Positions 31,185 through 47,741 of a DNA stretch of 48,146 nt are shown here, piece by piece. Below the pieces are notes generated by a model, which was given only the letters and a program-made list of their open reading frames with translations, ran no database searches and was not told where the DNA came from. The stretch's first letter is position 1. The number at the start of each line of letters is the position of its first letter. The stretch comes from Actinomycetes bacterium (GTDB lineage: Bacteria; Actinomycetota; Acidimicrobiia; Acidimicrobiales; Bog-793): NCBI GenBank assembly GCA_021791795.1, contig JAJYVX010000005.1, forward strand, positions 293-48,438. The letters run 5' to 3'. The translations under genes and the position numbers were made by a program.

Positions 31185-33542
31185 ATGGAGGGCCGAACTG
31201 AAGACGTAGCGCATCCGCCGCTCCTCGACGCCGAAGACAGGGTCACCGGCCGCACTCCTTTCGTCGTGAACGAGGAGGTCTCCGGAATGCTGCACGGCAA
31301 GCTGGTGCGCTCGTCGGCAGCCCATGCCCACCTCGTAGGTGTCGACACAGGCGCGGCGCTCGCCCACCCGGGGGTTCGCGCCGTTGTCACAGGCGCCCTG
31401 CTCGTGGCCCGAGGCGGCATGGAGTTGGAATTCGGCCCGGTCGTGCGTGACCAACCGGTGCTCGCCTACGACGCCGTCCGCTACATAGGCGAACCGATCG
31501 CGCTCGTCGTCGCCTCCGATCCCTTCGTGGCCGAGGAGGCGGCCAGCCTCGTGGAGGTCACCTACGACCACCTGCCTGCAGTGTTCGACGTCGACGAGGC
31601 GACGGCCCCCGGCGCCCCCGTCCTGTTCCGAGCCGAGCCCGAGCGAGACCCGGCCTTCGTCGACGTCACGCTGCGGGCCGACTACGAGCGCAACGTGTGC
31701 AACGTCTTCAGCGTCGTGCGGGGGGATGCCTCGGCGGCGATCTCCTCCGCCGACCACGTCTTCGAGCACGTCTTCGAGAGCCCGGCTGCGGGCGCCGCTC
31801 CGCTCGAGACGCACGTCGTGGTCGCCGATGCCCGCGGCGACCGGGTCACCGTCTGGACCTCGACCCAGACTCCGCACATCGTGAGGCGGCAGCTCGCCCT
31901 CCTCTTCTCCCTCCCTCTCAACCGCGTCCGGGTGGTGGTCTCCGCTCTCGGCGGGGGCTTCGGCGCCAAGGCATATGCGGCCATCGAGCCGGTCGCAGCC
32001 GTGGCATCCCGCCTGGTCGGAGCGCCCGTGCGCATCCACCTCGCGCGCGACGAGGAATTCGTCACCTCCACCAAGCACGCCATGCGGGTGCGCCTGCGCA
32101 CCGCGGTGACGAACGACGGCCTGATCGTCGCCCGCCAGGCGCTCGCCCGCTACAACGCCGGAGCGTACGCAGGCATCAGCCCGCGCAAGGTGATGTTCGG
32201 GGCGTACGGGCTGAACGGGCCCTATCACATAGCGAACGTGGACATCCACGTCGAGGCCGTGTGCACGAACACGCCGCCTGCTGGCGCATATCGGGGTTTC
32301 GCCATCAATCAGGCGGCCTGGGCGTATGAGCAGCAGATGGACATCATCGCCGAGGCTCTCGGTATCGATGCCGCCGAGATGCGCCGGCGCAACCTGCTCC
32401 GCGACGGCGACACCTTCTGCACCGGCGAGACCCTCGAGCACCTGCACTTCCACGAGTTGCTCGACACCGTCACAGAACGGATCGGCTGGGACCCGGACGC
32501 GAAGCCGGAGCGCGATGGAGACCTAGTTAGGGCAAAGGGCATCTCGTGCGTCATCGAAGGGACGATCACGCCTTCCACCTCCACCGCGACGGTCCGCCTG
32601 AACGGCGACGGGAGCGTGGACGTGCTCACGAGCTCTGTCGAGATGGGTCAAGGGATGAGGCCGGCGCTCGCCTCGCTCGTCGCCCGGCGCCTCGGAATCG
32701 ACCCGGGTCTCGTCGGAGTCTCATATGTCGACACCGACCTCACCCCCTACGATCAGCAGACGACTGCGAGCAGGTCGATGGCATCCATGGGGAGAGCTTC
32801 GGAGCTCGCCACCGACGACATGGTCGAGAAGGTGCGCCAGCTGGCGGCGGAGCTGCTCGAGGCCGATCCGTCCGACGTCGCGGTCGTCGGCGGACATGCC
32901 CAGGTGGTGGGAGTCCCGAGCCGCCGCCTGAGTCTGGCAGAGGTCGTAGGGCGGAGTCGGGTGGGAAATTTGCACGGAGAGGGCACGTTTGTCACCGAGG
33001 GCGGCCTCGACCCGTTCAGCGGGCAGGGTGTCGGTTCGGCTCACTGGCACCAGTCGCTCGGGGCCGCGGAGATCGAGGTGGACATCGCGACGGGCAAGGT
33101 GCGGATCCTGCGCTACGCGGGTGCCCTCTTCGCCGGCGACGTCGTAGATGCGGTCGGTGCCGACCACCAGTGCGAGGGGTGCCTCGTGTTCGGGGTCGGT
33201 AATGCTCTGTTCGAGGAGCTCGTCTTCGACAAGGGCCAGCTTACGAACGCCAGCCTGGCGGACTACATGGTCCCGAGCCTCGACGACATGCCCGACGCGT
33301 ACGGGTTCGACCTGGCGACGGACGAGAACCGCGACGTGCACGGCCTCGGCGAGCCGGCGCTCCCTCCCGTCGCACCGGCAGTGGCGAACGCGCTCTACCG
33401 GGCGACCGGAGTGCGGATCCACTCGCTCCCGATCAGCGCCGAGAGGGTGCTGCGCGGCGTGCAGGCTGAGAGGCGCAGCGGTGGGGCAGGCGGCGGAACA
33501 GGCGGCGGAACAGGCGGCGGCGGCACGGGATCGCGGGCATGA
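31185..33542 (+). CDS. XDH/aldehyde-oxidase/CoxL-family molybdopterin-binding large subunit (enzyme 1)
   Basis: 785 aa. Contains GGGFGAKAYAAIEP and PPAGAYRGFAINQAAWAYEQQMD, with a GGAGAGGAG SD. It ends in a Gly-rich repeat tail. Confidence 0.9.
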   Translation: MEGRTEDVAHPPLLDAEDRVTGRTPFVVNEEVSGMLHGKLVRSSAAHAHLVGVDTGAALAHPGVRAVVTGALLVARGGMELEFGPVVRDQPVLAYDAVRYIGEPIALVVASDPFVAEEAASLVEVTYDHLPAVFDVDEATAPGAPVLFRAEPERDPAFVDVTLRADYERNVCNVFSVVRGDASAAISSADHVFEHVFESPAAGAAPLETHVVVADARGDRVTVWTSTQTPHIVRRQLALLFSLPLNRVRVVVSALGGGFGAKAYAAIEPVAAVASRLVGAPVRIHLARDEEFVTSTKHAMRVRLRTAVTNDGLIVARQALARYNAGAYAGISPRKVMFGAYGLNGPYHIANVDIHVEAVCTNTPPAGAYRGFAINQAAWAYEQQMDIIAEALGIDAAEMRRRNLLRDGDTFCTGETLEHLHFHELLDTVTERIGWDPDAKPERDGDLVRAKGISCVIEGTITPSTSTATVRLNGDGSVDVLTSSVEMGQGMRPALASLVARRLGIDPGLVGVSYVDTDLTPYDQQTTASRSMASMGRASELATDDMVEKVRQLAAELLEADPSDVAVVGGHAQVVGVPSRRLSLAEVVGRSRVGNLHGEGTFVTEGGLDPFSGQGVGSAHWHQSLGAAEIEVDIATGKVRILRYAGALFAGDVVDAVGADHQCEGCLVFGVGNALFEELVFDKGQLTNASLADYMVPSLDDMPDAYGFDLATDENRDVHGLGEPALPPVAPAVANALYRATGVRIHSLPISAERVLRGVQAERRSGGAGGGTGGGTGGGGTGSRA

Positions 33543-34174
33543 CGGCGCTTCACGAAGTCCCTGCCGAGGGCGGAGGCGGCGACGTCAAGGTGCCCGATGC
33601 CGACGGCCGGGTGCCGGTGGTGCTCTTGGTGAACGGCGCACCCCACCGGGTGCACGTGCGGACCACCGAGGTGCTGCTCGACGTCCTGCGAGAAGACCTG
33701 AAGCTGGTAGGTGCCCGTAACGGCTGCGGGGTGGGCATGTGCGGCGCGTGCACCATCTTGAGGGACGGTCGGGCGGTGAGCAGTTGCCTCACACTCGCCG
33801 TCCTCTGCGAAGGAGCCGACCTCCGCACCATCGAAGGGCTGCGCGGAGGCGGCGGAGAAGGCGGCGAGGGCGGCGAGGGCGGGGGCCTGAGCCGAGTCCA
33901 GCGGGCCTTCCTCGAGCACCGGGCGTTCCAGTGCTCGTACTGCACGTCCGGTTTCATCCTCGCCCTCGAGGCACTTCTCGCCGTGGACTCGCATCCCACC
34001 GAGGCCGCCGTCCGCGAGGCCTTCAGCGGGCATCTCTGCCGGTGCGGCAGCTACTCGCGCATCATGGCCGCCGCTCGCCAGGCGGCCGGGCTGCCCTCCC
34101 GAGGAGGCTTGGCGAGGGGCGCGGTGACAGGCGGGGTGACAGGCTGCGCGCCGGACGAGGAGCCCGGGCGATGA
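33539..34174 (+). CDS. (2Fe-2S)-binding small subunit (enzyme 1)
   Basis: Contains GCGVGMCGACTIL and QCSYCTSGFIL...GHLCRCGSY. The ATGA start overlaps the large-subunit stop. Confidence 0.9.
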   Translation: MTALHEVPAEGGGGDVKVPDADGRVPVVLLVNGAPHRVHVRTTEVLLDVLREDLKLVGARNGCGVGMCGACTILRDGRAVSSCLTLAVLCEGADLRTIEGLRGGGGEGGEGGEGGGLSRVQRAFLEHRAFQCSYCTSGFILALEALLAVDSHPTEAAVREAFSGHLCRCGSYSRIMAAARQAAGLPSRGGLARGAVTGGVTGCAPDEEPGR

Positions 34175-35058
34175 GCCAACCGCTCGTGTTCTTCCCCACT
34201 ACGGTCGCCGAGGCGGTCGAGGTCCTCGACAGGTACGGGGGGGAGGCGAAGGTGGTGGCCGGTGGTACGGCCGTGAGCCTCATGCTGCAGCATCGCCTGA
34301 TCCAACCCGCAGCCCTCGTCTCCCTGCAACGGGTGGACGGCCTACGCGAGGTGGGCCGCACCGAGGAAGGGACGGCGGTCCGGCTCGGCGCGCTCGTCAC
34401 CCACGCCGAGGCGGCGCGCCACCCCTTCCTGAGATCAGCGGCCCCTCTCGTCGCCGACGCATTCGCCGTCGTGGGCAACCCGCAGGTGCGGGCCGCGGCC
34501 ACCGTCGGCGGTGTCCTCACCGAGGCCGACTACGCCTCCGACCCGCCCGCGGCGCTGCGGGCGATCGACGCCGTGGTGATCGCGCAGGGCCCGGCGGGCG
34601 CGCGCATCATCCCGGTCTACGACCTGCTGCTCGGCTTCTACGAGACGGCGCTCGCCGACAACGAGATCGTCTCGTCGGTCGTCGTGCCGTTGCTTCCCGA
34701 AGGAGCGGGCAGCGCGTATCTCAAGTACTCCTCGCGCTCGAGCGAGGACCGGCCCTGCGTCGGCGTGGCAGCGGTGGTCCGCCAGGCTCCCGACGGTTCG
34801 TGCGCAGAAGTGCGTGTCGTGCTCGGTGCCATCGCCGCGGTACCGGTACGGGTCCCGGAACTGGAGGCGGCAGCAGTCGGACGGCCGCTCGACCCTGCAG
34901 GCCTCGGTGACGCCTACGCCGAGGCGGTGGATCCGCTCGAGGATGTGCGAGGCTCGGCCTGGTACCGCCGCGAGATGGTACGAGTGTGGGTGGCGAGAGC
35001 GGTCACGGCCGCCCGGCACCGCTGCACCGGCGGCCCGCAGCCGCCGCCCGCCGGGTGA
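34171..35058 (+). CDS. FAD-binding (CoxM/XdhB-like) medium subunit (enzyme 1)
   Basis: Contains KVVAGGTAVSLMLQHRL, the NPQVRAAATVGGVL motif and DVRGSAWYRREM. The ATGA start overlaps the small-subunit stop. Confidence 0.9.
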   Translation: MSQPLVFFPTTVAEAVEVLDRYGGEAKVVAGGTAVSLMLQHRLIQPAALVSLQRVDGLREVGRTEEGTAVRLGALVTHAEAARHPFLRSAAPLVADAFAVVGNPQVRAAATVGGVLTEADYASDPPAALRAIDAVVIAQGPAGARIIPVYDLLLGFYETALADNEIVSSVVVPLLPEGAGSAYLKYSSRSSEDRPCVGVAAVVRQAPDGSCAEVRVVLGAIAAVPVRVPELEAAAVGRPLDPAGLGDAYAEAVDPLEDVRGSAWYRREMVRVWVARAVTAARHRCTGGPQPPPAG

Positions 35059-35098
35059 CAGGCGACAGGCGACAGGCGACAGGCGACAGGCGACAGGC
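35057..35098. repeat. Heptanucleotide microsatellite (GACAGGC)x6
   Basis: Counted directly. The first copy shares its first two bases with the stop TGA (35056-35058) of the preceding gene. The array lies about 100 bp upstream of the next operon's start. Confidence 0.95.
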
Positions 35099-35195
35099 AG
35101 GACAGCACGACCGCTGCCCGCATGTCGTCGGGGCCACGGCGCAACCACCACCTGGCTGCATACTCTGGTATACAGAGATCGACGAAGGGAGGGGG

Positions 35196-36074
35196 ATGGC
35201 ACGACTGCTCCGTCCGGAGACGGTCTCTCAGGCTTTGCGCCTGCTGGCGGATGGCGAGGTGGGCACGAAGCTCGTCGCGGGTGGCACGGCGGTCATGCTC
35301 ATGATGCGGGCCGGGTTGCTCTTCCCCGAGCGGCTCGTCGCCCTCGAGCACGTGGCAGACCTCGACTACGTCGAGGTCGAGCCCGACGCGGTGCGGCTAG
35401 GTGCGCTCACACGCCTGCGGGACCTCGAGCGATCCGTCCCGCTCGCCTCGGCGCTTCCGACGCTCGCGCGTGCGATCGGCTTCGTGGCCAACCACCGCGT
35501 CCGCAACAGGGCGACCATCGGGGGATGCCTCAGCGAGGCTGACTACGCCTCTGACCCTCCGGCGGTGCTCGCGAGCCTCGGGGCACGCGTGCGCTTGCGG
35601 AGCGTCCGGGGCGAACGGGAGGTCCCCGTCACCGACTTCCTCGTCGGCTACTACGAGACCGTGCTCGAGCACGACGAGCTTCTCACCGAGGTCGTCATCC
35701 CCCGGCCCGGGCCCCGGGTCCGAACGACCTACCTCAAGTACGTGAGCCGCTCGGCGGAGGACAGACCGTGCGTGGGCGTGGCGGCATACGTAGATGCCGA
35801 CGAGTCGGGCCGGACCGAAGAGGTCCGTGTGGCCGTCGGCGCCGCGACCGCAAACCCCTTCATGCTCGGCGACGTCGCGCAGATGCTCGGCGGTGGCCCC
35901 CTCGACGCGGGCGCCTGCCGGGCCGTGGGAGAGGCCTACGAGCGCGCGATCGAGCCGATCGGCGACGTCCGGGGCTCTTCGGACTACCGGCGCAAGGTGA
36001 CCGGCCGTCTCGTCGCAAGGGCGCTCGAGACAACCGCTCTCTCCGGCCACGGCAACGGGGCATTCCGGCTGTGA
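35196..36074 (+). CDS. FAD-binding (CoxM/XdhB-like) medium subunit (enzyme 2)
   Basis: A GAAGGGAGGGGG SD precedes the start. Contains KLVAGGTAVMLMMRAGL, NHRVRNRATIGGCL and DVRGSSDYRRKV. Confidence 0.9.
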   Translation: MARLLRPETVSQALRLLADGEVGTKLVAGGTAVMLMMRAGLLFPERLVALEHVADLDYVEVEPDAVRLGALTRLRDLERSVPLASALPTLARAIGFVANHRVRNRATIGGCLSEADYASDPPAVLASLGARVRLRSVRGEREVPVTDFLVGYYETVLEHDELLTEVVIPRPGPRVRTTYLKYVSRSAEDRPCVGVAAYVDADESGRTEEVRVAVGAATANPFMLGDVAQMLGGGPLDAGACRAVGEAYERAIEPIGDVRGSSDYRRKVTGRLVARALETTALSGHGNGAFRL

Positions 36075-38485
36075 GCGGGACTCTCGACGACTCGGGGGCA
36101 GCCGACTCGAGGGCAGGCGACTCGAGGGCAGCGGTGCCGGTCGCCGTCGGTGCCGCCGTCGGCCAGAGCATCGACGTCCTGCAGGCGAGGTCGCGGGTCG
36201 ACGGCACGGTCGAGTTCGCCCTCAACGCCGAGGTGCCCGGCATGACCCATGCAAGGCTGCTGCGCAGCCCCTACGCCCACGCGCGCATCGTCTCCATGGA
36301 CGTCAGCGCGGCCGAGAGGCTGCCTGGTGTCGTCTCGGTGCTCACGGCTGCGGACTTCGACCGGCCCGGCGCCCCTCACCGCTACCACGGGCCGGTCGTG
36401 AGGGATCAACCGGTGGTTTGTGGGAGGAGGGTGCGTTTCGCCGGGGATCCGGTCGCAGCCGTGGCGGCCGAGTCAGAGGAGATCGCTACGGCGGCCCTCG
36501 ATCGCATCGAAGTCGTCTACGAGGAGCTGCCCCGGGTGACCACCGTCGAGGAGGCCATGGCAGACGGAGCGCCTCTCGTCCACGACCGGCCGCCCGAGGT
36601 GCGCGACCACGGCTACGCCGACGTCCGGCTCGCAGGTGTGGGGGGCAACGTCTGCACGAAGTTCCAGCTGCGAAAGGGCGACGTCGATGCCGCCCTTGCC
36701 GGGTCCGACGTGGTCGTCGACCGCACCTACCACACTCCGGCAGTGCAGCACGTGACGATGGAGCCACACGTGGTGCTCGCCACCTACGACCGGCGGGCCT
36801 GTGCCCTCTCGGTGCTGAGCAGCACGCAGGGGCCGTTCGCCGTGCGTGACGCCCTCTGCGAGATGTTCCGCCTCCCGAGCTCCTCGGTGAGAGTCGTCGT
36901 CCCCCCGCTCGGGGGTGGCTACGGGGCGAAGACCTACGCCAAGTTCGAGCCGGTGGCCGCTGCGCTCTCCTGGAAGGCGGGGCGACCGGTGAAGCTCGTG
37001 CTGCCGCGCGACGAGGACTTCCTCTCGCTCACCAAGCACGCGGCGACGATCCGGATGCGGACAGGCGCCACCTTCGAGGGACGCCTCGTCGCGCGGGACG
37101 TCCAGATCTTCTTCAACGGCGGGGCGTATGCCGACATCAGCCCTCGTCTCATCAAGAACGGCGGCTACAGCTGTGTCGGCCCCTACGACATCCCCCACGT
37201 CCGCATCGACTCCTACGCTCTCTACACCAACCTCCCTCCTGCCGGCGCCTACCGCGGCTACGGCGTATCGCAGGCCGCGTGGGCCTACGAGCAGCAGATG
37301 GACGAGCTCGCCGACGTGCTCGGCATCGACCCCGTCGAGCTAAGGCGGCGCAACCTGCTCGTAAAGGGCGAGGCGTACGCGACCGGCGAGATCATGGACG
37401 AGGCGCACTGGGAGGCCCTGCTCGACAAGGCGGCGGCTGCCGTCGACTGGTCCCCCGATTCGCGGAGAGGCACGGGACCTTCTGGTCGGCTCCGGGGGAA
37501 GGGAGTTGCCGTCATCCTCAAGTCCACCGTCACGCCGTCCACGACGCATGCGGCGGTCCGTCTCGACGCCGACGGCACCATGCAGGTGTTCAGCTCGGCG
37601 GTGGAGATGGGGCAGGGCGCCCATACGGTGCTCGCCCAGCTGGCGGCTGACGCGGCGGGCATCCCCGTCGCGAACGTGCACGTGACCGCCCCCGACACCC
37701 AGTACACGCCTTACGACCAGACGACGAGCTCGAGCCGGACCACGCGCGCCATGGGCGGGGCGGTAACGAAGGCGGCTCGTGTCGTGCGTGACCGCGTCAG
37801 GCGCCTCGCCTCCGAGTTGCTCGAGGCCGACCCCGACGACCTCGTGGTCTCCGGCGGTACGGTCTTCGTCGCCGGCGTGCCCTCACGGAACCTCTCGGTC
37901 GCCGAGGTCTGCTATAGGACGAGGACCGGCAGCATCAGCGGCGACGGCGACGTCGTCACCTCCGGCGGACTCGACCCCGAGACGGGTCAGGGTGTGGCGA
38001 GCGACCACTGGCACGAGGGGGCGGCGTCCGCCGAGGTGGAGATAGATCCGGCGACCGGCAAGGTCTACGTGACCAACCTCTACGTGGCGGCATATGCGGG
38101 CCGCGTCGTCAACCCGAAGCTCGCCCGCCTGCAGATGCACGGAAGCGCTCTCTTCGGGATGAGCCACGCCCTGTACGAGGAGCTCGTGTTCGACAACGGC
38201 GTGCTCACCAACCCGAACCTGTCCGAGTACTCGATCGTCTCCATGGGCGACATGCCTCGACACCTCGAGGTCGAGCTCCTCGAGGAGCCCGGCGAGGCGG
38301 GGATCCACGGCCTCGGCGAGACGGGACTGCCTCCGGTGATCGCCGCCCTCGGCAACGCCGTGGCGAGCGCGACCGGGGCGCGGGTGCGGCAACTGCCGAT
38401 GACGCCCGAAAGAGTCCTGCAGGCGATGGAGGCGCGGGGGGCGACGGAGGAGCGGGACGCCTTGAGGGGACTGGAGGAGCGATGA
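36071..38485 (+). CDS. XDH/aldehyde-oxidase/CoxL-family molybdopterin-binding large subunit (enzyme 2)
   Basis: The GTG start overlaps the upstream stop (GTGA). Contains PLGGGYGAKTYAKFEP, PPAGAYRGYGVSQAAWAYEQQMD and SSVEMGQGAHTVLAQ. Confidence 0.9.
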   Translation: MSGTLDDSGAADSRAGDSRAAVPVAVGAAVGQSIDVLQARSRVDGTVEFALNAEVPGMTHARLLRSPYAHARIVSMDVSAAERLPGVVSVLTAADFDRPGAPHRYHGPVVRDQPVVCGRRVRFAGDPVAAVAAESEEIATAALDRIEVVYEELPRVTTVEEAMADGAPLVHDRPPEVRDHGYADVRLAGVGGNVCTKFQLRKGDVDAALAGSDVVVDRTYHTPAVQHVTMEPHVVLATYDRRACALSVLSSTQGPFAVRDALCEMFRLPSSSVRVVVPPLGGGYGAKTYAKFEPVAAALSWKAGRPVKLVLPRDEDFLSLTKHAATIRMRTGATFEGRLVARDVQIFFNGGAYADISPRLIKNGGYSCVGPYDIPHVRIDSYALYTNLPPAGAYRGYGVSQAAWAYEQQMDELADVLGIDPVELRRRNLLVKGEAYATGEIMDEAHWEALLDKAAAAVDWSPDSRRGTGPSGRLRGKGVAVILKSTVTPSTTHAAVRLDADGTMQVFSSAVEMGQGAHTVLAQLAADAAGIPVANVHVTAPDTQYTPYDQTTSSSRTTRAMGGAVTKAARVVRDRVRRLASELLEADPDDLVVSGGTVFVAGVPSRNLSVAEVCYRTRTGSISGDGDVVTSGGLDPETGQGVASDHWHEGAASAEVEIDPATGKVYVTNLYVAAYAGRVVNPKLARLQMHGSALFGMSHALYEELVFDNGVLTNPNLSEYSIVSMGDMPRHLEVELLEEPGEAGIHGLGETGLPPVIAALGNAVASATGARVRQLPMTPERVLQAMEARGATEERDALRGLEER

Positions 38486-38988
38486 CGGAGGGCGGCAAGA
38501 TCACCGTCTCCTGCGTCCTCAACGGCGCCAAGACCGATCTCTGCGGGGAGGCCGCCCAACCGGCGTCCGAAGCGCTTCGCCGTGAGGGGCTGTTCGGGGT
38601 GCGCGAGACCTGCTCGCTCGGTGTCTGCGGCACCTGCACGGTGCTGCTCGACGGCGAACCCGTCAGTGCCTGCATCCTGCCCTTCTACGCTCTTGAGGGG
38701 TCTGAGGTACGCACAGTCGAGGGCCTCGAGTCGGGCGGGCGGCTCAGCGCCCTGCAGCAGCAGTTCATCGAGTCGCAAGCGTTCCAGTGCTCTTTCTGCA
38801 CGCCCGGTTTCCTGCTGAGCGCCGCGGCCCTGCTCGACTCCACCGAGGGGGCGCTCACCGACGAGCAGGTGGAGGAGGGCCTGCAGGGCCATCTCTGCCG
38901 GTGCGGGTGCTACGAGACCGTCAAGGAGGCCGTGCGAGCCGTAGCCGCGAGACGGCACGGTCAGGACGCCGGCCGAGGCGCCCGATGA
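38482..38988 (+). CDS. (2Fe-2S)-binding small subunit (enzyme 2)
   Basis: Contains CSLGVCGTCTVLL and QCSFCTPGFLL...GHLCRCGCY. The start is an ATGA overlap. Confidence 0.9.
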   Translation: MTEGGKITVSCVLNGAKTDLCGEAAQPASEALRREGLFGVRETCSLGVCGTCTVLLDGEPVSACILPFYALEGSEVRTVEGLESGGRLSALQQQFIESQAFQCSFCTPGFLLSAAALLDSTEGALTDEQVEEGLQGHLCRCGCYETVKEAVRAVAARRHGQDAGRGAR

Positions 38989-40923: not shown

Positions 40924-41918
40924 CTCGGCCGCGCATCGCTCTCATGTGCACCGGTGGCACCATCGACTCCCTCGGTGCCTCCCGCCTCGACCTCGCCTGG
41001 TACACCGAGACCGGCCAGAGGCTCGACGACGGCGAGATGCTGGCCGCGCTCCCCGAGCTGAGCGAGTTCGCGGACGTCGAGCAGATCGCCTCTCCTCGCC
41101 GGCCCAGCTACGAGATCACGTCCCGCGACTGGCTCGCCCTTGCAGGCGCGGTCAACGGCCTGCTTGCGAGGCCCGACATCGCCGGGGTGGTGGTCACCCA
41201 CGGGACGAACACGCTCGAAGAGACCGCCTACTTCCTCCATCTCGTGACCGTGCCACCCAAGCCGGTCGTCCTCGTCGGGGCGATGCGGCCGGCCAACGGG
41301 CCCGGCAGCGAGGGGCAGTTGAACCTGCTCCGCGCCGTGCAGGTCGCCGCCGACCCGGCGGCGCGCGGACTCGGGGCCCTCGTCGTCATGAACGACAACA
41401 TCCACGGAGCCCGGGACGTCACGAAGACCCATACGTTCCGGCCGGACACGTTCCGGTCGCCCGATGCCGGACCGCTCGGGATCGCGGATGCCGACGGGAG
41501 GATCGTCTTCTATCACCGCCCCTTTCACCCACCCTCAGGACGCCCCCTATTCGCCGTGGACCAGCTGAGCGACCTGCCCCGGGTCGACGTGGTCGTATCT
41601 CACGTCGGAGCCGACGGAGCTCTCGTCGACGCCGCGGTGGCGGCCGGGTGCAGGGGTCTCGTCAACGCGGGCACTGGAGCCGGCAGGCCGACGGCCGGCG
41701 AGCAGGCCGCAATGGACCGGGCGGCGCAGGCGGGCGTGGTCGTCTGCCAGGCGAGCCGCGTGGGCTCGGGTCGCGTCTCCCGCTCGCCCGGGATGGCGGC
41801 CCGCGGCGTCGTGGCGGCGGACAACCTCCCCGCATGGAAGGCACGTGTGCTGCTCTTGCTCGCCCTCACGAAGACCTCCGACCCGGAGGCCGTCCAGGAC
41901 ATGTTCGACCGCCTGTGA
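40920..41918 (+). CDS. L-asparaginase/glutaminase-family amidohydrolase (type II-like, no signal peptide)
   Basis: Contains IALMCTGGTIDS (the TGGTI catalytic Thr motif), VVVTHGTNTLEETAYFL (HGTDT-like) and VLVGAMRPA. The start is a GTGA overlap. Confidence 0.85.
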   Translation: MTRPRIALMCTGGTIDSLGASRLDLAWYTETGQRLDDGEMLAALPELSEFADVEQIASPRRPSYEITSRDWLALAGAVNGLLARPDIAGVVVTHGTNTLEETAYFLHLVTVPPKPVVLVGAMRPANGPGSEGQLNLLRAVQVAADPAARGLGALVVMNDNIHGARDVTKTHTFRPDTFRSPDAGPLGIADADGRIVFYHRPFHPPSGRPLFAVDQLSDLPRVDVVVSHVGADGALVDAAVAAGCRGLVNAGTGAGRPTAGEQAAMDRAAQAGVVVCQASRVGSGRVSRSPGMAARGVVAADNLPAWKARVLLLLALTKTSDPEAVQDMFDRL

Positions 41919-41967: not shown

Positions 41968-43656
41968 ATGAGCAAAACCCAGCCTGTGCGCAACACGCTG
42001 CTTACCCTCCTCGACGCCGCTCAGCTGACCGGCTACTACGCGGCGGGCCACTGGCAGGAGGACACCATCTACGCGCTCGTCGCGAGGCGGGCGAGTCTCG
42101 AGCCGGAGAAGGTCGCCGTGCGAGAGGCCGGCCGCCACGTCACCTACGCCGAGCTGGTCGACGCGGCCGACCGCCTGGCCGGAGCACTCGAGGCGGCCGG
42201 CCTTCGACCCGGCCAGCGCGTCGCCGCATGGCTCTCGAGCCGCATCGAGACCGCGGCGGCCGTGCTCGCCTGCTCACGCAACGGCTACGTGTGCTCCCCC
42301 TCGCTGCACCGCGACCACACCGTCGCAGAGGTGACGGACCTGCTCAGCCGCATGCGTGCCGCCGCCCTCGTCGCCGAGAGGGGATACGGAGCCGATGCCG
42401 GCCGCGACGACATCTTCTCTCGCGCAGAAGAGCTCGACACGCTGAGACTGACGCTCGCGGTGCCTCCCCGCGAGGCTTCGAGCGGTGTCCTTCCCGAGAT
42501 CACCGGGCGATCCACCGGCAGGCCTGTCTCGAGTCCGGACACCGTCGTGTACCTCGCCTTCACCTCGGGCACGACCGGGGCACCGAAGGGCGTCATGCAC
42601 TCGGACAACACCCTGCTCGCCCCGGTCCGGGCGCTCGCGGCGGACTGGCAGCTCGGGGCTGACTCGGTCATCTACTCCTTGTCTCCGCTCAGCCACAACC
42701 TAGGTTTCGGGGCGATGATCCTCGCCCTCACCCAGGGGGGGGAGCTCGTCGTCCACGACCTGCCCCGCGGTGCCAGCCTGCTCGACCGCCTCGTAGAGAC
42801 GGGCACCACCTTCATCTTCGGCGTGCCGACGCATGCCATCGACCTCCTCGCCGAGCTGAGGGTGCGCGGGCTCGACCGGGTCGGCGCTGTGAAAGGGTTC
42901 CGCATCTCCGGATCCGCCGTGCCGCCCGCCGTGGCCGAGGGGCTGCTCGCCCACGGCGTCCTGCCGCAGAGCGGATACGGCATGACCGAGGCCGGCTCGC
43001 ACCACTACACGAGGCCGGACGACCCCGCCGAGATCGTCGTGCGCACGTCGGGCCGCGCCTGCGCAGGGTACGAGGTGAGGATCTTCTCGCGCGACGAGCC
43101 CGACCGGGAGCTCCCGAACGGCGAGGTGGGCCAGATCGGTGGTCGTGGCGCCGGGCTGATGCTCGGGTACTTCGACGACCAGACCGGGACGGAGGAGTCG
43201 TTCAACCGCGGGGGCTGGTTTCTCACGGGAGACCTCGGGTGGTTGGACGACGCGGGGAACATCCGGATCACGGGCAGGAAGAAAGACATCATCATCCGCG
43301 GCGGCCACAACATCTTCCCGGCGAAGATCGAGGCGCTCGCCCTCCGCCATCCCGCCCTGGACAAGGCCGCAGCCGTCCCCGTTCCCGACGAGCGCCTGGG
43401 CGAGCGGGTGTGCCTCGTCGTCGTCCTGGAGCCCGGAGCGGTGCTCGAGCCGGACGGTCTGCTCGAGCACCTCGACGAGAGCGGCCTTTCTCGCTACGAC
43501 ATGCCCGAGTACGTGCTCATGCTCGACGAGATCCCGCTCATGCCGTCCGGCAAGATCTTCAAGCGGCGGCTGGTCGAGTGGGTCGAGAGCGGCCGGGTCA
43601 CGCCGACCCCGGTGCGCTTCACGCGGAAGCGGCCCCCCGCAGGCGAGGCAGAGTGA
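41968..43656 (+). CDS. AMP-forming acyl-CoA synthetase/ligase (ANL superfamily)
   Basis: Contains LAFTSGTTGAPKGV, QSGYGMTE, WFLTGDLG, GRKKDIIIRGGHNIFP and the terminal PSGKIFKR. Confidence 0.9.
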   Translation: MSKTQPVRNTLLTLLDAAQLTGYYAAGHWQEDTIYALVARRASLEPEKVAVREAGRHVTYAELVDAADRLAGALEAAGLRPGQRVAAWLSSRIETAAAVLACSRNGYVCSPSLHRDHTVAEVTDLLSRMRAAALVAERGYGADAGRDDIFSRAEELDTLRLTLAVPPREASSGVLPEITGRSTGRPVSSPDTVVYLAFTSGTTGAPKGVMHSDNTLLAPVRALAADWQLGADSVIYSLSPLSHNLGFGAMILALTQGGELVVHDLPRGASLLDRLVETGTTFIFGVPTHAIDLLAELRVRGLDRVGAVKGFRISGSAVPPAVAEGLLAHGVLPQSGYGMTEAGSHHYTRPDDPAEIVVRTSGRACAGYEVRIFSRDEPDRELPNGEVGQIGGRGAGLMLGYFDDQTGTEESFNRGGWFLTGDLGWLDDAGNIRITGRKKDIIIRGGHNIFPAKIEALALRHPALDKAAAVPVPDERLGERVCLVVVLEPGAVLEPDGLLEHLDESGLSRYDMPEYVLMLDEIPLMPSGKIFKRRLVEWVESGRVTPTPVRFTRKRPPAGEAE

Positions 43657-43670
43657 CCGCCTCGGCGGCC

Positions 43671-44672
43671 ATGCGGGCCGTCCGGGTCCGGTCGTTCGGC
43701 TTCCCACCCGATGCGGCCCTGGAGGAATGCGAGACGCCGGAGCCCGGACCGGGCGAGTTGCTGATCGCCGTGCGCGCAGCTCCGGTCAACTACGTCGACC
43801 TTCTCACCATGCGAGGTGAGTACCAGTTCAAGCCGGAGCTGCCCTACACGCCGGGCAAGGGCCCTGCGGGAGTGGTCGTCGCCACCGGGCCGGGCGCAGA
43901 CGGCTGGGCCGTCGGGACCCGGGTGCTCGCCATGGCGGAGTACGGGGGCTACGCCGAAGCTGTCGTCGTCCCGCAACAAAGCGCCTACCTGCTTCCCGAC
44001 AGCCTCCCCTTCACCGCCGCCGGCGCCATGTCGCTCGCATTCGACACGGCATGGGTGTCCTTGCGCGAGCGTGCCCGCCTGGTGCCGGGCGAGTCGGTTC
44101 TCGTCCTCGGGGCGAACGGGGCCGTCGGCAGCGCGGCTGTGCAGCTGGCCGTGGCGATGGGAGCGTCGCCCGTGCTTGCCGGCGTCTCCTCGCCCGAGAG
44201 GTACGCGGACCTCGACCACCTCGGTGCCGGCGGGATGGTCGATCTCTCTCGCCCGGGCTTGCGCGACAGCGTTCGCGAGCAGGTGTTCGCCCTCACCGAT
44301 GGGCGGGGCGTGGACGTCGTCGTCGACCCGCTCGGCGGAGATCCCTTCGACGGCGCCGTCCGGGCGTTGGCGTGGCGTGGGCGGTTGGTGGTGGTCGGCT
44401 TCGCTTCCGGCCGGATCCCGACGCTCGCGGCGAACTACCTCCTCTTGAAGAACATAGAGGTGTCCGGTATCCAGATAAGCGACTATCGGAAGAAGACGCC
44501 CGAGCTGCTGGAGGAGTGCTACCGGGATGTCTTCTCGCTCTACGTCGCCGGCAAGGTGGTCGCACCGGCGATCGTCAGGTACCCGCTCGAGTCCTGGCAA
44601 GCCGCCGTCAGCGATTTCGCGTCGCACAGGGCCAAGGGGCGAGTGCTGCTCGTCCCGGACGGCGAGGATTGA
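43671..44672 (+). CDS. MDR-superfamily NADPH:quinone-oxidoreductase/zeta-crystallin-like reductase
   Basis: Contains ELLIAVRAAPVNYVDLL, GESVLVLGANGAVGSAAVQLA (AxxGxxG) and GRLVVVGFASG. No catalytic Zn ligand pattern is present. An alternative GTG 43653 overlaps the upstream stop. Confidence 0.85.
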   Translation: MRAVRVRSFGFPPDAALEECETPEPGPGELLIAVRAAPVNYVDLLTMRGEYQFKPELPYTPGKGPAGVVVATGPGADGWAVGTRVLAMAEYGGYAEAVVVPQQSAYLLPDSLPFTAAGAMSLAFDTAWVSLRERARLVPGESVLVLGANGAVGSAAVQLAVAMGASPVLAGVSSPERYADLDHLGAGGMVDLSRPGLRDSVREQVFALTDGRGVDVVVDPLGGDPFDGAVRALAWRGRLVVVGFASGRIPTLAANYLLLKNIEVSGIQISDYRKKTPELLEECYRDVFSLYVAGKVVAPAIVRYPLESWQAAVSDFASHRAKGRVLLVPDGED

Positions 44673-44690
44673 CGCGGTGGCGGGCGCGTG

Positions 44691-45197
44691 TCACCGGAAG
44701 GGCAGCACCAGTTGCGTGCAGGTGAAGCGCGCCATCAGGCGCCGGGTGGCGTTGCGCTCGTCGGCTGCGGAGAAGACGTCGACGTCCTGCACGATCGAGC
44801 GACGCCCGATGTGCACCGGGCGGGCCTCGGCCACGAGCGTCGTGCCCGCATCAGCCCGGCTGAGCAGGTGGCAGGTCAGGTCGAAGGTCGCGAAGTTGCC
44901 GGCTGGCACTGCACCGTCGCTCGCCCATCCGGCGACGGCATCGGCGAAGGCGACGAGCGCCCCACCCTGGGGACCCCCCCGCTGGTTGAGGTGCAGGGGT
45001 GTGAGCATCATCTCCGCCCTGGCCCGTCCGACGCCGATGTGGGTGAGGCGCATGCCCATCGCGTCGAGGAAGCAGCCCGGCGGCGTGCCCGCCAATTCCT
45101 CGGGCACGGCCACCATGCCTTCCGTCGGAGCGAGGCCGGCCAGCTCGAAGAGAGGGGTGGTGCTCGAGGGTTCCTGCACGAGTTGCTCACCTTTCAT
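44691..45197 (-). CDS. PaaI/hotdog-fold thioesterase
   Basis: GMRLTHIGVGRARAEMMLTPLHLNQRGGPQGGALVAFADAVAG...GRRSIVQDVDVF is a typical PaaI-family core. The internal ATG 45197 of ORF 44691..45377 was chosen. Confidence 0.8.
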   Translation of the reverse strand: MKGEQLVQEPSSTTPLFELAGLAPTEGMVAVPEELAGTPPGCFLDAMGMRLTHIGVGRARAEMMLTPLHLNQRGGPQGGALVAFADAVAGWASDGAVPAGNFATFDLTCHLLSRADAGTTLVAEARPVHIGRRSIVQDVDVFSAADERNATRRLMARFTCTQLVLPFR

Positions 45198-45419
45198 CAC
45201 TCGCCACCCGGCGCGCTGCCTTCTCGGTCCCATTTGGCCGCGGCACGGTCGGTATGCCGCTGCATACATTACGATCCGGCCCGGATCGAGTACGGACGCC
45301 GCGGCGATCCACCGAGAAGAGACGGATCTGTCGTTGGAACGCTGCGACCTCGGCGGCCGCTGGGACGTCTGCGACACCGCGTTTCGCCCGGTGCCCGTCC
45401 GAACCCGCGGGAGGCAGTG

Positions 45420-46097
45420 ATGGCCAAGAGATCGACGGCAGGGCGAGCTGTGCCGGCACGCCTCTCACCTACCCGGCGAGTCGTGCCCTACGAGCGCATC
45501 AAGCAGGCCATCATGTCCGGCGACCTCGAACCCGGTGCCCCGCTCGTCGAGCTGGCGCTGGCGGAGTGGTGCGAGGTGAGCAGGACACCGGTGCGCGAAG
45601 CGCTTCTCAGGCTCGAGCAGGACGGGCTCGTCGTCCGTGGCGACCAGGGCCTCTCGGTCCGGGAGAGCAGCCCGGAAGAGATCCTCGACATCTACGACAC
45701 GCGCATCGTGCTCGAAGCTCGGGCTGCGGCTGTGGCTGCCGAGCGCCGCACCTCCCACGACCTCATGGCCATGCGCCGCCTGACAGACAAGTTCTCCCAC
45801 TGCGACGCGGAGGAGGCGAGCGCGCTCGCCGAGACGAACCGCGAATTCCATCGCTCCGTCTGGCGCGCCAGCCACAACGACTCGCTTGTCGACCTGCTCG
45901 AACGGCTGAATCTGCTGCTCGGCCGATACCCTGCCACGACGCTCGCCTTCCCCGGCCGGTGGAAGACGGCGAGCGTTGAGCACAACAAGCTCCTGCTCGC
46001 CATCGAAGCCCGAGACGAGGAGGAAGCCGCCGCGGTGGCCACGCGTCACTTCTCCGCAGCGCGCGACATCCGGCTTCGCTTGTGGGAGGGCGAGTAG
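45420..46097 (+). CDS. GntR-family regulator, FadR subfamily (wHTH + FCD domain)
   Basis: The wHTH reads YERIKQAIMSGDLEPGAPLVELALAEWCEVSRTPVREALLRLEQDGLV. The FCD-like helical domain contains IYDTRIVLEARAA, NREFHRSVW and EHNKLLLAIEARDEEEA. A GGGAGG SD precedes the start. Confidence 0.85.
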   Translation: MAKRSTAGRAVPARLSPTRRVVPYERIKQAIMSGDLEPGAPLVELALAEWCEVSRTPVREALLRLEQDGLVVRGDQGLSVRESSPEEILDIYDTRIVLEARAAAVAAERRTSHDLMAMRRLTDKFSHCDAEEASALAETNREFHRSVWRASHNDSLVDLLERLNLLLGRYPATTLAFPGRWKTASVEHNKLLLAIEARDEEEAAAVATRHFSAARDIRLRLWEGE

Positions 46098-46265
46098 CCA
46101 TCGGGATCACGCACTGCTCGGTTGGAGGGGACACCAGCTGCCGACGTCGCTCGGTCTCGGCGAGCGGCACCTTGCGACGCCTAGGAGCATTGGAGCACCA
46201 TATGATTGCATGCGTAGGTACACCGTTGCATGCAGAGGAGAGGCTGTGACGGGAGTGCCGGCGAG

Positions 46266-47741
46266 ATGACGGCTCGACGGGTGATCGTGGTGGGCGCGGG
46301 CAACGCAGCGCTGTGCGCAGCTCTCTCCGCCCGGGAGCGTGGTGCCGACGTCCTCGTCCTCGAGCGGGCGCCACAGCGTCTGCGCGGCGGCAACACCGCT
46401 TTCACCGCGGGAGCGATGCGCGTCGCATACCAAGGTGTCGATGACCTGCGGCAGCTCATGCCCGAGCTCAGCGACGAAGAAGTCGCCGTGACCGACTTCG
46501 GCCACTACCCGGTACAAGCGTTCCTCGAAGACATGGCACGGGTGACCGAGTACCGCACGGATCCCGAGCTGGCGGCGACCCTTGTCGAGGAGAGCTTCCC
46601 GACTCTGTTGTGGATGCGGGAGAAGGGCGTGCGCTTCCTCCCCATCTATGGCCGCCAGGCGTTCAAGGTCGACGGCCGGTTCACTTTCTGGGGTGGCCTC
46701 ACCGTCGAGGTGTCGGGCGGTGGACCAGGTCTCGTCGATTGCCTGACGGCGGCCTGCGGTCGGGAGGGCGTGAGGATCGAGTACGGCGCCCGAGCGCTGT
46801 CGCTCGTGCAGGATGATGCCGGCATCCACGGCGTGACACTTCGCCAGGATGGGAGGACGCGCGTGGAGCCGGCGGGTGCCGTCGTCCTCGCCTGCGGCGG
46901 CTTCCAGGCCAACGCCGAGTGGCGGACGCGTTACCTCGGGCCTTCGTGGGACCTCGCGAAGGTGCGCGGCACGATGTACAACACCGGGGACGGCCTCAAG
47001 ATGGCGCTCGACGCCGGGGCGAGCCCTACCGGCAACTGGTCCGGCTGCCACGCCGTGGGCTGGGACCGCAACGCCCCCGAGTTCGGCGACCTGAGCGTGG
47101 GAGACGGCTACCAGAAGCACAGCTATCCCTTCGCCATCATGATCAACGCACAAGGCAAGCGCTTCGTCGACGAGGGCGCCGACTTCCGCAACTACACCTA
47201 CGCGAAGTACGGACGCCGCATTCTCGAACAGCCTGGTCAGTTCGCCTGGCAGATCTTCGACCAGAAGGTGGTGCATCTTCAGCGGGACGAGTACCGCATC
47301 CGCCAGGTCACCAAGGTCACAGCCGGCACTCTCGAGGAGCTCGCCGGAAAGCTCGAGGGCGTCGACGCGGCCGGGTTCCTCGAAGAAGTCGCCGCCTACA
47401 ACGCCGCCGTCGATGTAGGCACGCCCTTCAATCCGAACGTCAAGGACGGGCGCTCTACGAAGGGGCTGGCCGTGAACAAGACCAACTGGGCCAACCGCGT
47501 CGACGAGGGGCCGTTCGAGGCATACGCGGTCACCTGCGGGATCACTTTCACCTTCGGAGGCCTCAGAATCAACACCAAAGCGCAGGTCCTCGACACCGAC
47601 ATGACGCCGATGCCAGGTCTCTACGCCGCGGGCGAGCTCACTGGTGGCATCTTCTACTTCAACTACCCCGGCGGTACCGGGCTCACGAACGGCTCCGTCT
47701 TCGGCCGGATCGCGGGATACGAGGCGGCGTCCGGCTCGTAG
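46266..47741 (+). CDS. tcuA: FAD-dependent tricarballylate dehydrogenase TcuA-like flavoprotein
   Basis: Contains VIVVGAGNAALCAALSARERGADVLVLERAP...RGGNTAFTAGA (dinucleotide fold), RFTFWGGLTVEVSGGGPGLVD and GLYAAGELTGGIFYFNYPGGTGLTNGSVFGRIAG. It matches my recollection of actinobacterial proteins annotated as TcuA. The specific substrate is unverified. Confidence 0.75.
   Translation: MTARRVIVVGAGNAALCAALSARERGADVLVLERAPQRLRGGNTAFTAGAMRVAYQGVDDLRQLMPELSDEEVAVTDFGHYPVQAFLEDMARVTEYRTDPELAATLVEESFPTLLWMREKGVRFLPIYGRQAFKVDGRFTFWGGLTVEVSGGGPGLVDCLTAACGREGVRIEYGARALSLVQDDAGIHGVTLRQDGRTRVEPAGAVVLACGGFQANAEWRTRYLGPSWDLAKVRGTMYNTGDGLKMALDAGASPTGNWSGCHAVGWDRNAPEFGDLSVGDGYQKHSYPFAIMINAQGKRFVDEGADFRNYTYAKYGRRILEQPGQFAWQIFDQKVVHLQRDEYRIRQVTKVTAGTLEELAGKLEGVDAAGFLEEVAAYNAAVDVGTPFNPNVKDGRSTKGLAVNKTNWANRVDEGPFEAYAVTCGITFTFGGLRINTKAQVLDTDMTPMPGLYAAGELTGGIFYFNYPGGTGLTNGSVFGRIAGYEAASGS

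Follow-up and report, generated by a model that had tools for sequence, protein, structure and literature searches.

Gene content of the cluster

A stretch of 48,146 nt of an Actinomycetes bacterium (contig JAJYVX010000005.1; in the following "the window") was analysed for a gene cluster at positions 31185-47741, which we propose as a candidate for the catabolism of pyridine-4-carboxylates by coenzyme A (CoA) thioesters and tricarballylate. As the window has the 70% GC content of a high-GC soil actinomycete, genes were called by third-position GC periodicity (frame plot), and the calls were checked by Pfam and NCBIfam scans. All fourteen genes that a preliminary description of this DNA had listed as co-localised were found in this interval, and each of its family-level assignments was confirmed by the domain scans. 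Some details had to be amended: the large (L), small (S) and medium (M) subunits of the two molybdenum (Mo) hydroxylases are encoded in the order L1-S1-M1 for the first enzyme and M2-L2-S2 for the second, the thioesterase gene lies on the minus strand, and M2 and the thioesterase probably start at 35196 and 45197, respectively. The features are as follows.

31185-33542, plus strand: L1, large (molybdopterin-binding) subunit of Mo-hydroxylase 1, 785 aa (Ald_Xan_dh_C, MoCoBD_1, MoCoBD_2)
33539-34174, plus strand: S1, small subunit of hydroxylase 1 with two [2Fe-2S] clusters, 211 aa (Fer2_2, Fer2; overlaps L1 by 4 nt)
34171-35058, plus strand: M1, FAD-binding medium subunit of hydroxylase 1, 295 aa (FAD_binding_5, CO_deh_flav_C; overlaps S1 by 4 nt)
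35196-36074, plus strand: M2, FAD-binding medium subunit of hydroxylase 2, 292 aa (FAD_binding_5, CO_deh_flav_C)
36071-38485, plus strand: L2, large subunit of Mo-hydroxylase 2, 804 aa (Pfam)
38482-38988, plus strand: S2, [2Fe-2S] small subunit of hydroxylase 2, 168 aa (Fer2_2)
38985-39983, plus strand: PuuE1, hydrolase of the PuuE/imidase fold, 332 aa (Polysacc_deac_1; PDB 1z7a, 3cl6, 3s6o)
39976-40923, plus strand: PuuE2, degenerate paralogue of the PuuE fold, 315 aa (TIGR03212, 61 bits; PDB 3rxz, 3s6o, 3cl6)
40920-41918, plus strand: asparaginase-family amidase, 332 aa (PF00710, 177 bits; PF17763, 94 bits)
41968-43656, plus strand: AMP-forming acyl/aryl-CoA ligase, 562 aa (AMP-binding, AMP-binding_C)
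43653-44672, plus strand: zinc-free NADPH oxidoreductase of the medium-chain dehydrogenase/reductase (MDR) family, 339 aa (ADH_N, ADH_zinc_N)
44691-45197, minus strand: hotdog (4HBT/PaaI-like) thioesterase, 168 aa (PF03061; TIGR00369, 48.4 bits, cut-off 36.6)
45252-45267: perfect palindrome GTATGC-N4-GCATAC in the divergent thioesterase/GntR intergenic region
45420-46097, plus strand: GntR/FadR-type (FCD) regulator, 225 aa (GntR and FCD domains)
46230-47741, plus strand: TcuA-family FAD flavoprotein, 503 aa (NF006130, 580.8 bits, cut-off 369)

Eleven of the fourteen genes (g1-g11, L1 to MDR) form a single translationally coupled block on the plus strand, in which 8 of the 10 consecutive junctions overlap by 4-8 nt each; the two others are gaps of 137 nt between M1 and M2 and of 49 nt between the asparaginase and ligase genes (g9-g10). 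In view of these overlaps and of the recurrence in unrelated genera described below, the co-localisation is more than chance.

Two full sets of large, small and medium subunits were recognised by Pfam, as had been claimed for two complete three-subunit Mo-hydroxylases. L1 contains a GGGFG and L2 a GGGYG motif, and the catalytic Glu of the GLGE motif is present in both; this combination of a GGG[FY]G motif with the GLGE glutamate is typical of the hydroxylases within the Mo-hydroxylase family. The locus has two separate Mo-hydroxylases, as would be expected for a pathway of the type known from Mycobacterium sp. INA1. The two large subunits share about 46% identity and belong to distinct lineages. 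For M2, an ATG at 35196 (292 aa) and a GTG at 35055 (339 aa) are candidate starts; the former is preceded by a GGGAGG Shine-Dalgarno sequence, and with orthologues of 290-291 aa it is probably the correct one.

Neither hydroxylase reached the NCBIfam equivalog cut-offs for xanthine dehydrogenase, CO dehydrogenase, aldehyde oxidoreductase or 4-hydroxybenzoyl-CoA reductase. The best scores with the XdhA/PucD/XdhB equivalogs were 396-485 bits (cut-offs 780-916). TIGR03194 (4-hydroxybenzoyl-CoA reductase alpha) was the top NCBIfam match of L1. Among solved structures, the best relatives of L1 and L2 were 4-hydroxybenzoyl-CoA reductase alpha, quinoline 2-oxidoreductase and a ketone dehydrogenase of the nicotine pathway, with 1rm6_A as best PDB relative of L2; the E. 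barkeri enzyme 3hrd was a mid-rank match, and no nicotinate-dehydrogenase equivalog was matched. L1S1M1 is proposed as isonicotinate 2-hydroxylase and M2L2S2 as 2-hydroxyisonicotinate 6-hydroxylase, with citrazinate (2,6-dihydroxyisonicotinate) as its product. At its C-terminus L1 carries a Gly-rich tail (33480-33539; GGAGGGTGGGTGGGGTG) that is absent from the solved relatives.

The PuuE1 and PuuE2 genes overlap by 8 nt. Both proteins scored below the cut-off of the PuuE allantoinase model TIGR03212 (113.4 and 61.5 bits, respectively; cut-off 424.6), and their similarity to solved imidase-fold structures is low (69-80 bits). PuuE2 had no Pfam match and was related to 3rxz, 3s6o and 3cl6 with E = 2e-17 to 1e-13. 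PDB 3S6O is 91% identical to the imidase BpIH, a hydrolyser of 3-isobutylglutarimide with the catalytic triad Glu38-His127-Trp131, and PuuE-fold imidases cleave 3-substituted glutarimides (PMC11424739). In PuuE1, the motifs N-[IV]-E (29 of 31 homologues) and S-H-G (27 of 31) align with Glu38 and His127 of BpIH; the Glu and the His are invariant wherever the alignment covers them, while the Trp position is taken by a conserved Asn, resulting in a Glu-His-Asn triad. PuuE2 has Thr, Gly and Ala at these three positions. In cluster-type PuuE2 orthologues the His127 position is occupied by Gly in nearly all cases and by Ala in a group of metagenome-assembled genomes (MAGs) and in locus L028, and the Glu38 position by G, R or T, also by A or S. 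Distant PuuE2-type proteins from other contexts (L030-L039, L012, L013) kept the Glu except in L012 and the His except in L013. Since Glu and His are lost in comparison with PuuE1 and the distant paralogues, PuuE2 looks like a degenerate partner of PuuE1, which points to a pair made up of one catalytic and one pseudo-enzyme subunit. PuuE1 is accordingly proposed as the catalytic subunit of a hydrolase for the glutarimide ring of 2,6-dioxopiperidine-4-carboxyl-CoA, and PuuE2 as its non-catalytic or substrate-binding partner. Around residues 245-267 (39720-39785) PuuE1 has an Ala/Gly-rich insertion (ATARAGAGAGAGAAGGTAGGG), which the solved relatives do not share.

The asparaginase-family protein contains the catalytic motif TGGTIDS and is proposed as a half-amide deamidase releasing NH3. 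No NCBIfam equivalog passed for the ligase, whose best PDB relatives are the 2,3-dihydroxybenzoate-AMP ligases EntE and DhbE; we propose it as a citrazinate-CoA ligase. The MDR protein belongs to the PIG3/quinone-oxidoreductase family, with enoyl-reductase domains of polyketide synthases as next matches, contains two Cys residues and is without the GHE zinc motif; it is proposed as a citrazyl-CoA ene-reductase carrying out an enoyl-thioester-type reduction. For the thioesterase the longest open reading frame extends to 45377, and the start at 45197 fits the orthologue lengths of 155-166 aa. Only the generic hotdog model TIGR00369 was passed, the PaaI equivalog TIGR02286 giving 46.2 bits (cut-off 118.9), and tricarballylyl-CoA hydrolase is the proposed function. 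The TcuA-like protein is proposed as a tricarballylate dehydrogenase forming cis-aconitate, from a clade without TcuB.

The palindrome at 45252-45267 is the single site of this kind in the window (0 expected by chance) and may represent an operator of the GntR-type regulator. TTGCATG occurs three times in promoter regions of the cluster (31131-31137, 46206-46212, 46226-46232), as compared to 1.2 occurrences expected in the whole window. As a shared GntR operator it was dropped and not used as evidence, because it is not conserved in the orthologous loci. An inverted-repeat scan for a shared operator added nothing, a promoter/terminator scan found nothing, and no clear gene was seen in the final 400 nt of the window.

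Conservation of the cluster in other genomes

Gene-neighbourhood conservation, which the preliminary description had put forward as a check, was studied in contigs encoding homologues, a plasmid collection and a metagenome scan. The genes of the lower pathway were always linked, the hydroxylase lineages were specific for the pathway, and TcuA-family genes were repeatedly attached. Homologues are numerous: relatives of the ligase at 60-80% identity run into the hundreds, and PuuE2 yielded 251 clusters at E ≤ 1e-20, the majority of which come from soil metagenomes and from actinomycetes. Their names are generic ("class I adenylate-forming enzyme", "hypothetical protein", "allantoinase", "xanthine dehydrogenase family protein"), "allantoinase" being the JGI name for PuuE2 homologues.

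The genes for ligase, MDR, PuuE1, PuuE2 and asparaginase were linked in every related locus of sufficient length (Streptomyces, Pseudonocardia, Nocardioides, an Arthrobacter plasmid, MAGs and soil metagenome contigs). In metagenome contigs the PuuE1-PuuE2-asparaginase triad was never split, and ligase and MDR genes were adjacent wherever the contig allows this to be seen; the asparaginase gene follows PuuE2 in every locus long enough to show both. This linkage supports the view that the cluster is one functional unit. The following gene orders were found.

MAGs L006 and L007: L1, unknown 262-aa protein, S1, M1, M2, L2, S2, PuuE1, PuuE2, asparaginase, ligase, MDR, thioesterase (minus strand), TcuA-like
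Sister MAG L005: DDE transposase at the expected L1-S1-M1 site (L005 1140-2669 vs. L006 1-3264)
Pseudonocardia bannensis (L008): major facilitator superfamily (MFS) transporter, L1, S1, M1, CoxG, M2, L2, S2, PuuE1, PuuE2, asparaginase, ligase, MDR
Streptomyces cellulosae (L001 and L043), divergent arm: two GntR genes and MFS-L1-S1-M1-CoxG
Streptomyces cellulosae (L001 and L043), main arm: M2-L2-S2-PuuE1-PuuE2-asparaginase-MFS-CoxG-ligase-thioesterase-MDR-TcuA-XdhC
Nocardioides sp. T5 (L044): PuuE2, asparaginase, CoxG, ligase, MDR, ABC transporter, L1, S1, M1, CoxG, XdhC, TcuA-like
1.19-Mb contig (L045): L1, S1, M1, CoxG, M2, L2, S2, PuuE1, PuuE2, asparaginase, ligase
Arthrobacter crystallopoietes DSM 20117, conjugative plasmid pLDW-10 (L004): tcuA, moaE/A/D, GntR, PaaI, ABC transporter, M-L-S, PuuE1, PuuE2, asparaginase, SRPBCC, ligase, NADPH:quinone oxidoreductase, XdhC

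In L006 and L007, where L1 is only partly captured, the genes from S1 onward were scored and share 71-88% identity with those of the window. L005 and L006 encode an identical ligase protein and share the downstream gene order but differ upstream; L005 looks like a case of recent loss of the first hydroxylase. The L1 orthologues (65-72% identity, scored without the partly captured L1 of L006/L007) were found solely in this cluster type wherever the context was looked up, and L2 orthologues with 65-83% identity were detected by tblastn in the actinomycete clusters examined. For P. bannensis, the identities are 72% (L1) and 71% (L2). In L026, the same lower module lies between two hydroxylase sets that are non-orthologous. 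Orthologues of the regulator (57-62% identity) adjoin the cluster in Streptomyces, on the Arthrobacter plasmid, in L022 and in L026.

TcuA-like genes are attached to the cluster in eight loci; the window and the MAGs have such a gene, as do Streptomyces, Nocardioides, the plasmid of Arthrobacter, L019 and L026. In L018 and L021, PrpF of the aconitate-isomerase family takes the place of TcuA; these contigs also carry isochorismatase-family genes and no hydroxylase. The cluster-attached TcuA-like proteins belong to a TcuB-less clade, where they are interleaved with proteobacterial proteins encoded next to genes for the tricarboxylate transporter TctABC, for PrpD/PrpF or for an electron-transfer flavoprotein (ETF). 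The closest homologues (63-67% identity) are found on plasmid pTAV3 of Paracoccus versutus (L010 13087-18937) and on a Bradyrhizobium plasmid (L011 12285-19077). Neighbouring genes there encode a phosphosulfolactate-synthase-like protein, an NrtA/SsuA-type ABC transporter and PrpD/PrpF, together with TctABC or ETF proteins; the two loci are TcuB-less units of a presumed "TcuA".

On pLDW-10 (L004 1-23811, 25320-31603), a version of the cluster with one hydroxylase, that of the L2 set, lies between IS110 and IS256, with moaE, moaA and moaD inside. Genes for a luciferase-like monooxygenase, a flavin reductase, an aldehyde dehydrogenase and an amidohydrolase are located beside it, a set which presumably resembles pyridine-degradation genes. 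In Faunimonas sp. B44 (L002 4361-11713) a ligase with 64% identity to that of the window adjoins a UbiD-family decarboxylase, a different Mo-hydroxylase in the order L-M-S and an ABC transporter of the NMT1 type; this locus may serve a related route for a pyridine dicarboxylate.

Tandems of PuuE1-type and PuuE2-type genes also occur in Proteobacteria, where they adjoin the gene of an isochorismatase-family amidase and the surroundings point to acid catabolism of other kinds. On plasmids of Acidiphilium multivorum (L012 10357-16292) and Comamonas endophytica (L013 10371-12909) the tandem directly follows such an amidase gene. One of these two tandems is accompanied by genes for a CoA-transferase, a 3-hydroxy-3-methylglutaryl-CoA lyase, an aconitase-like dehydratase and an FAD oxidoreductase, the other by genes for an AMP-ligase and an acyl-CoA dehydrogenase. 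As the tandem recurs together with this amidase, a paired imidase plus amidase may constitute a wider, general module.

A possible route for pyridine-4-carboxylates

From the genes, protein families, key catalytic motifs and conserved linkage, all of which were observed directly, we infer the substrates, the order of the steps, a PuuE1/PuuE2 complex and the regulation. We assign a probability of roughly 55% to the reading that a pyridine-4-carboxylate is degraded aerobically and without an oxygenase by the products of the cluster, the most likely substrates being isonicotinate and 2-hydroxyisonicotinate, and that this route proceeds by citrazinate, citrazyl-CoA, glutarimide-CoA and tricarballylate. 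In this route, L1S1M1 and then M2L2S2 would introduce water-derived hydroxyls at C2 and C6 to yield citrazinate, which the aryl-acid-type AMP ligase would convert to citrazyl-CoA. By this activation the C3=C4 bond of the glutaconimide tautomer would become an enoyl-thioester (alpha,beta to the thioester), and the zinc-free MDR protein could reduce it with NADPH to 2,6-dioxopiperidine-4-carboxyl-CoA, a 3-substituted glutarimide. The imide ring would be opened by the PuuE-fold imidase, with PuuE1 as catalytic and degenerate PuuE2 as partner subunit, the amide nitrogen be removed as NH3 by the asparaginase-type amidase, and tricarballylate be set free by the hotdog thioesterase. Oxidation by the TcuA-like flavoprotein to aconitate would lead into the tricarboxylic acid cycle, and the GntR/FCD protein would regulate the cluster.

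Several findings argue for this route. The ligase is nearest to dihydroxybenzoate-adenylating enzymes, the MDR protein is zinc-free and related to enoyl reductases, and PuuE1 retains Glu and His. By simple chemistry, tricarballylate can arise after ring opening solely from a carboxyl group at ring position C4, and the associations with TcuA, PrpF and Tct genes point to such a C4-carboxyl product. Furthermore, the conservation of L1 and L2 as cluster-specific proteins in five actinomycete lineages argues for a defined two-step hydroxylation. For strain INA1, Kretzer and Andreesen in 1991 and Kretzer, Frunzke and Andreesen in 1993 are said to have described, as next steps, ATP/CoA activation, NADPH-dependent ring reduction, a dioxopiperidine-carboxyl-CoA and hydrolytic C-N cleavage, reportedly followed by propane-1,2,3-tricarboxylate. 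The conversion of isonicotinate to the 2,6-dihydroxy acid by two Mo-dependent hydroxylations in this strain is documented (Kretzer et al. 1993, PMID 8277257).

The pathway reading of the preliminary description thus stands as the leading hypothesis and is partly supported: protein families and synteny agree with it, the evidence from TcuA does so by half, and the mapping is not strict. Its one-to-one map of genes to steps holds insofar as each step has a plausible gene, but two PuuE-like proteins fall to one step and the second is without the catalytic Glu and His. TcuA, which had been singled out as the distinctive link, passes NF006130 and is attached in eight loci; its low identity to the characterised enzyme, the failed TIGR02485 model and the missing TcuB (see below) speak against that role. 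Of the INA1 route as outlined there, the two Mo-dependent hydroxylations were confirmed in the literature as far as available.

A number of observations weigh against the proposed route. No Mycobacterium is among the named homologues listed. The TcuA-like protein shows 36% identity to the characterised TcuA of Salmonella and fails TIGR02485 (266.3 bits, cut-off 372.55). No TcuB gene was found in the window or in the orthologous loci and no ETF gene near the TcuA-like gene of the window, and the TcuA-like proteins of different clusters share only 44-54% identity and fall into two sub-branches. In Pseudonocardia, neither a TcuA nor a thioesterase gene is present in the flank of about 6 kb past the last cluster gene. 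XdhC and CoxG maturation genes and a transporter were looked for in the window and not found, and some metagenome versions of the cluster have no Mo-hydroxylase on the contig. Moreover, L1 and L2 could act on CoA esters, because their best solved relative is 4-hydroxybenzoyl-CoA reductase. Finally, the cluster is common in soil, and isonicotinate is not known as an abundant natural product; the natural substrate may therefore be a different one.

In a possible, although rather doubtful, explanation, the chemistry is the same and the natural substrate another or a broader one. The lower module would be a general funnel for hydroxylated N-heteroaromatic carboxylates (e.g. pyridine dicarboxylates after decarboxylation, a pyridone carboxylate from plants or microbes, or citrazinate as such), fed by interchangeable Mo-hydroxylases, and the TcuA-like protein would oxidise the resulting substituted succinate or tricarboxylate, with isonicotinate at best as a side substrate. 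Such a funnel would fit the wide distribution of the module in soil metagenomes, the variable hydroxylase content of the loci (from no set on the contig to one or two, in one case a non-orthologous pair), the Faunimonas ligase beside a UbiD decarboxylase and a different Mo-hydroxylase, accessory genes that differ among loci (isochorismatase, PrpF, alpha/beta-hydrolase), and the apparent recruitment of TcuA-like proteins from two sub-branches. It agrees less well with L1 and L2 orthologues that are conserved and cluster-specific in five actinomycete lineages and with the C4-carboxyl product indicated by the recurrent TcuA, PrpF and Tct associations. A related proposal, which we consider tentative, concerns the ligase-MDR-PuuE1/2-asparaginase genes themselves: they may represent an undescribed, widespread module for oxygenase-independent, CoA-dependent aerobic cleavage of the pyridine ring, with a new heteromeric imidase, in which the pseudo-enzyme PuuE2 possibly binds CoA, and with interchangeable Mo-hydroxylases feeding it.

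The order of steps could also differ from that of the proposed route, the acid being first converted to its CoA thioester and the heteroaryl-CoA then hydroxylated by the Mo-enzymes, with the remainder unchanged. This is suggested by the relation of L1 and L2 to 4-hydroxybenzoyl-CoA reductase alpha, an aryl-CoA enzyme that scored 267 and 328 bits in the PDB search (ahead of quinoline oxidoreductase for L2) and whose model heads the NCBIfam matches of L1. Nevertheless, TIGR03194 gave 398 and 478 bits, far under its cut-off of 995, the match of M1 and M2 to TIGR03195 (beta) is split into two stretches (88 and 109 bits, cut-off 405), and these subunits of 292-295 aa are without the [4Fe-4S]-bearing insertion of HcrB. 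In addition, the ligase resembles enzymes for dihydroxy-aryl acids, and the INA1 hydroxylases reportedly used free acids, since isonicotinate dehydrogenase was purified as such (PMID 8277257); we regard activation before hydroxylation as unlikely. A slightly smaller chance is given to a nicotinate-type route, in which nicotinate is hydroxylated to 6-hydroxynicotinate and 2,6-dihydroxynicotinate before CoA activation, ring reduction and hydrolysis. Bacillus niacini likewise makes a 2,6-dihydroxy product by two successive Mo-hydroxylations, and the same enzyme families could in principle take the 3-carboxy isomer. By chemical reasoning, however, this isomer would end in a 2-carboxyglutarate-type (malonyl-type) acid that is prone to decarboxylation and not in tricarballylate, with no function left for the conserved genes of the TcuA-like protein, PrpF and the thioesterase, and the hydroxylases match no nicotinate-dehydrogenase equivalog and 3hrd only at mid-rank. 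Purine or allantoin catabolism, which the surface annotation (xanthine dehydrogenase family, "allantoinase") would suggest, appears highly improbable, as does a chance juxtaposition of unrelated operons. No xanthine dehydrogenase cut-off was reached, the PuuE model gave 113 and 61 bits instead of 425, and purine catabolism involves no CoA ligase, enoyl-reductase-type MDR protein, thioesterase or TcuA; against chance speak the translational coupling of the genes and their synteny in different genera. On the curated cut-offs, membership in the purine/allantoin and 4-hydroxybenzoyl-CoA reductase families was rejected.

Relation to known systems and surroundings of the cluster

The preliminary description knew of no genetic assignment for this pathway, and none was found in the searchable open literature or in curated models. 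Open full texts, to which the search was confined (subscription-only papers lay outside its scope), contained no genes for the catabolism of isonicotinate, 2-hydroxyisonicotinate or citrazinate; the term "citrazyl-CoA" was absent from the searchable open literature, and nothing relevant was found there on the carrier strains. NCBIfam (June 2026) holds no equivalog for any cluster gene except the generic TcuA model. As far as this search reached, it is a genetically undescribed cluster for a pyridine-carboxylate route that would begin with Mo-hydroxylases and continue, in its lower part, by CoA-dependent reduction and hydrolysis. So far its genes are the strongest candidates for the pyridine-4-carboxylate route that since the early 1990s has been known from enzyme assays only. 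With the INA1 pathway it shares two Mo-hydroxylases and has a plausible gene for each reported later step; it differs in covering one step with two PuuE-fold proteins, one of them degenerate, and in its carriers, INA1 being a Mycobacterium and the homologues listed including none.

An independent precedent for the proposed ring opening is the nicotinate catabolism of Aspergillus nidulans, for which it has been proven that the ring is saturated before a cyclic imidase and then an amidase act (PMC9304392). As in the hxn pathway of this fungus, a Mo-hydroxylase would start the route, the ring would be partly saturated to a piperidine-2,6-dione, and a PuuE/HpPgdA-related cyclic imidase (HxnM in the fungus) would open it before an amidase (HxnN) frees ammonia. 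The fungal pathway, however, uses monooxygenases, an ene-reductase of the old yellow enzyme type and an amidase of the fatty acid amide hydrolase type, has no CoA thioester and yields alpha-hydroxyglutarate, whereas the bacterial cluster appears oxygenase-free and CoA-dependent, with an MDR reductase, an asparaginase-type amidase and tricarballylate as predicted product. With the bacterial imidases BpIH of Burkholderia phytofirmans and that of P. putida YZ-26, as well as with PuuE allantoinase, PuuE1 shares the fold, and it keeps Glu and His; the ring and the substitution pattern of the BpIH substrate, a 3-substituted glutarimide, are those of the substrate proposed here. The known PuuE-fold imidases are homotetramers acting on free imides, in contrast to the obligately paired, degenerate second paralogue, the possible CoA-ester substrate and the Trp-to-Asn replacement in the cluster.

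Like TcuA of the Salmonella tcuRABC system (reference locus tcuR-tcuA-tcuB-MFS), the TcuA-like protein is a FAD_binding_2 flavoprotein, named TcuA by NF006130 and predicted to convert tricarballylate to cis-aconitate. Unlike in Salmonella, it is not accompanied by the Fe-S partner TcuB, by TcuC or by a LysR-type TcuR. The nic and pic clusters also begin with three-subunit Mo-hydroxylases, and the dip cluster is likewise under GntR/FadR-type control (DipR). These routes employ monooxygenases, decarboxylases and ring-cleaving dioxygenases leading to maleamate-type products, and none combines a CoA ligase, an ene-reductase and an imidase. The dipicolinate dip cluster was rejected as a relative, being monooxygenase-based and independent of the molybdenum cofactor.

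With candidate genes at hand, the isonicotinate/citrazinate route becomes open to direct tests. Isoniazid and many pyridines from agrochemistry and industry have isonicotinate as their core, and gene markers could be used to track the fate of isonicotinate-type compounds in soil and wastewater. If the proposed route is correct, it would provide regiospecific Mo-hydroxylases (C2 and C6 of 4-substituted pyridines) for hydroxypyridine building blocks, a new heteroaryl-CoA ligase, an ene-reductase that dearomatises a dihydroxypyridine thioester, a TcuA working without TcuB, and an imidase for 3-substituted glutarimides, a reaction class in industrial use for pregabalin intermediates. Bacteria would then, like Aspergillus, degrade pyridines aerobically via ring saturation and imide hydrolysis and not by dioxygenase cleavage.

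Upstream of 31185, domain scans revealed genes that are unrelated to the cluster. They encode an MFS transporter, a haloacid dehalogenase-type (HAD) hydrolase, AraC regulators, TerC, MMPL, a bis(pyranopterin guanine dinucleotide) (bis-PGD) molybdoenzyme, a CLC channel, a copper ATPase, an extracytoplasmic function (ECF) sigma factor and an aspartyl-protease-like protein. At 11083-16902 (minus strand), genes for the bis-PGD molybdopterin oxidoreductase and a fused 4Fe-4S/NrfD membrane protein adjoin that of a metallo-beta-lactamase-rhodanese protein and look like a polysulfide/thiosulfate-reductase-like unit. Within 28194-31130 (minus strand), the ECF sigma factor gene (29245-29748) overlaps the gene of a 390-aa protein without Pfam match, which may be an anti-sigma factor. 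The gene of the protein with an Asp_protease_2 domain, from 30192 to about 31130 (minus strand), is oriented divergently from the cluster.

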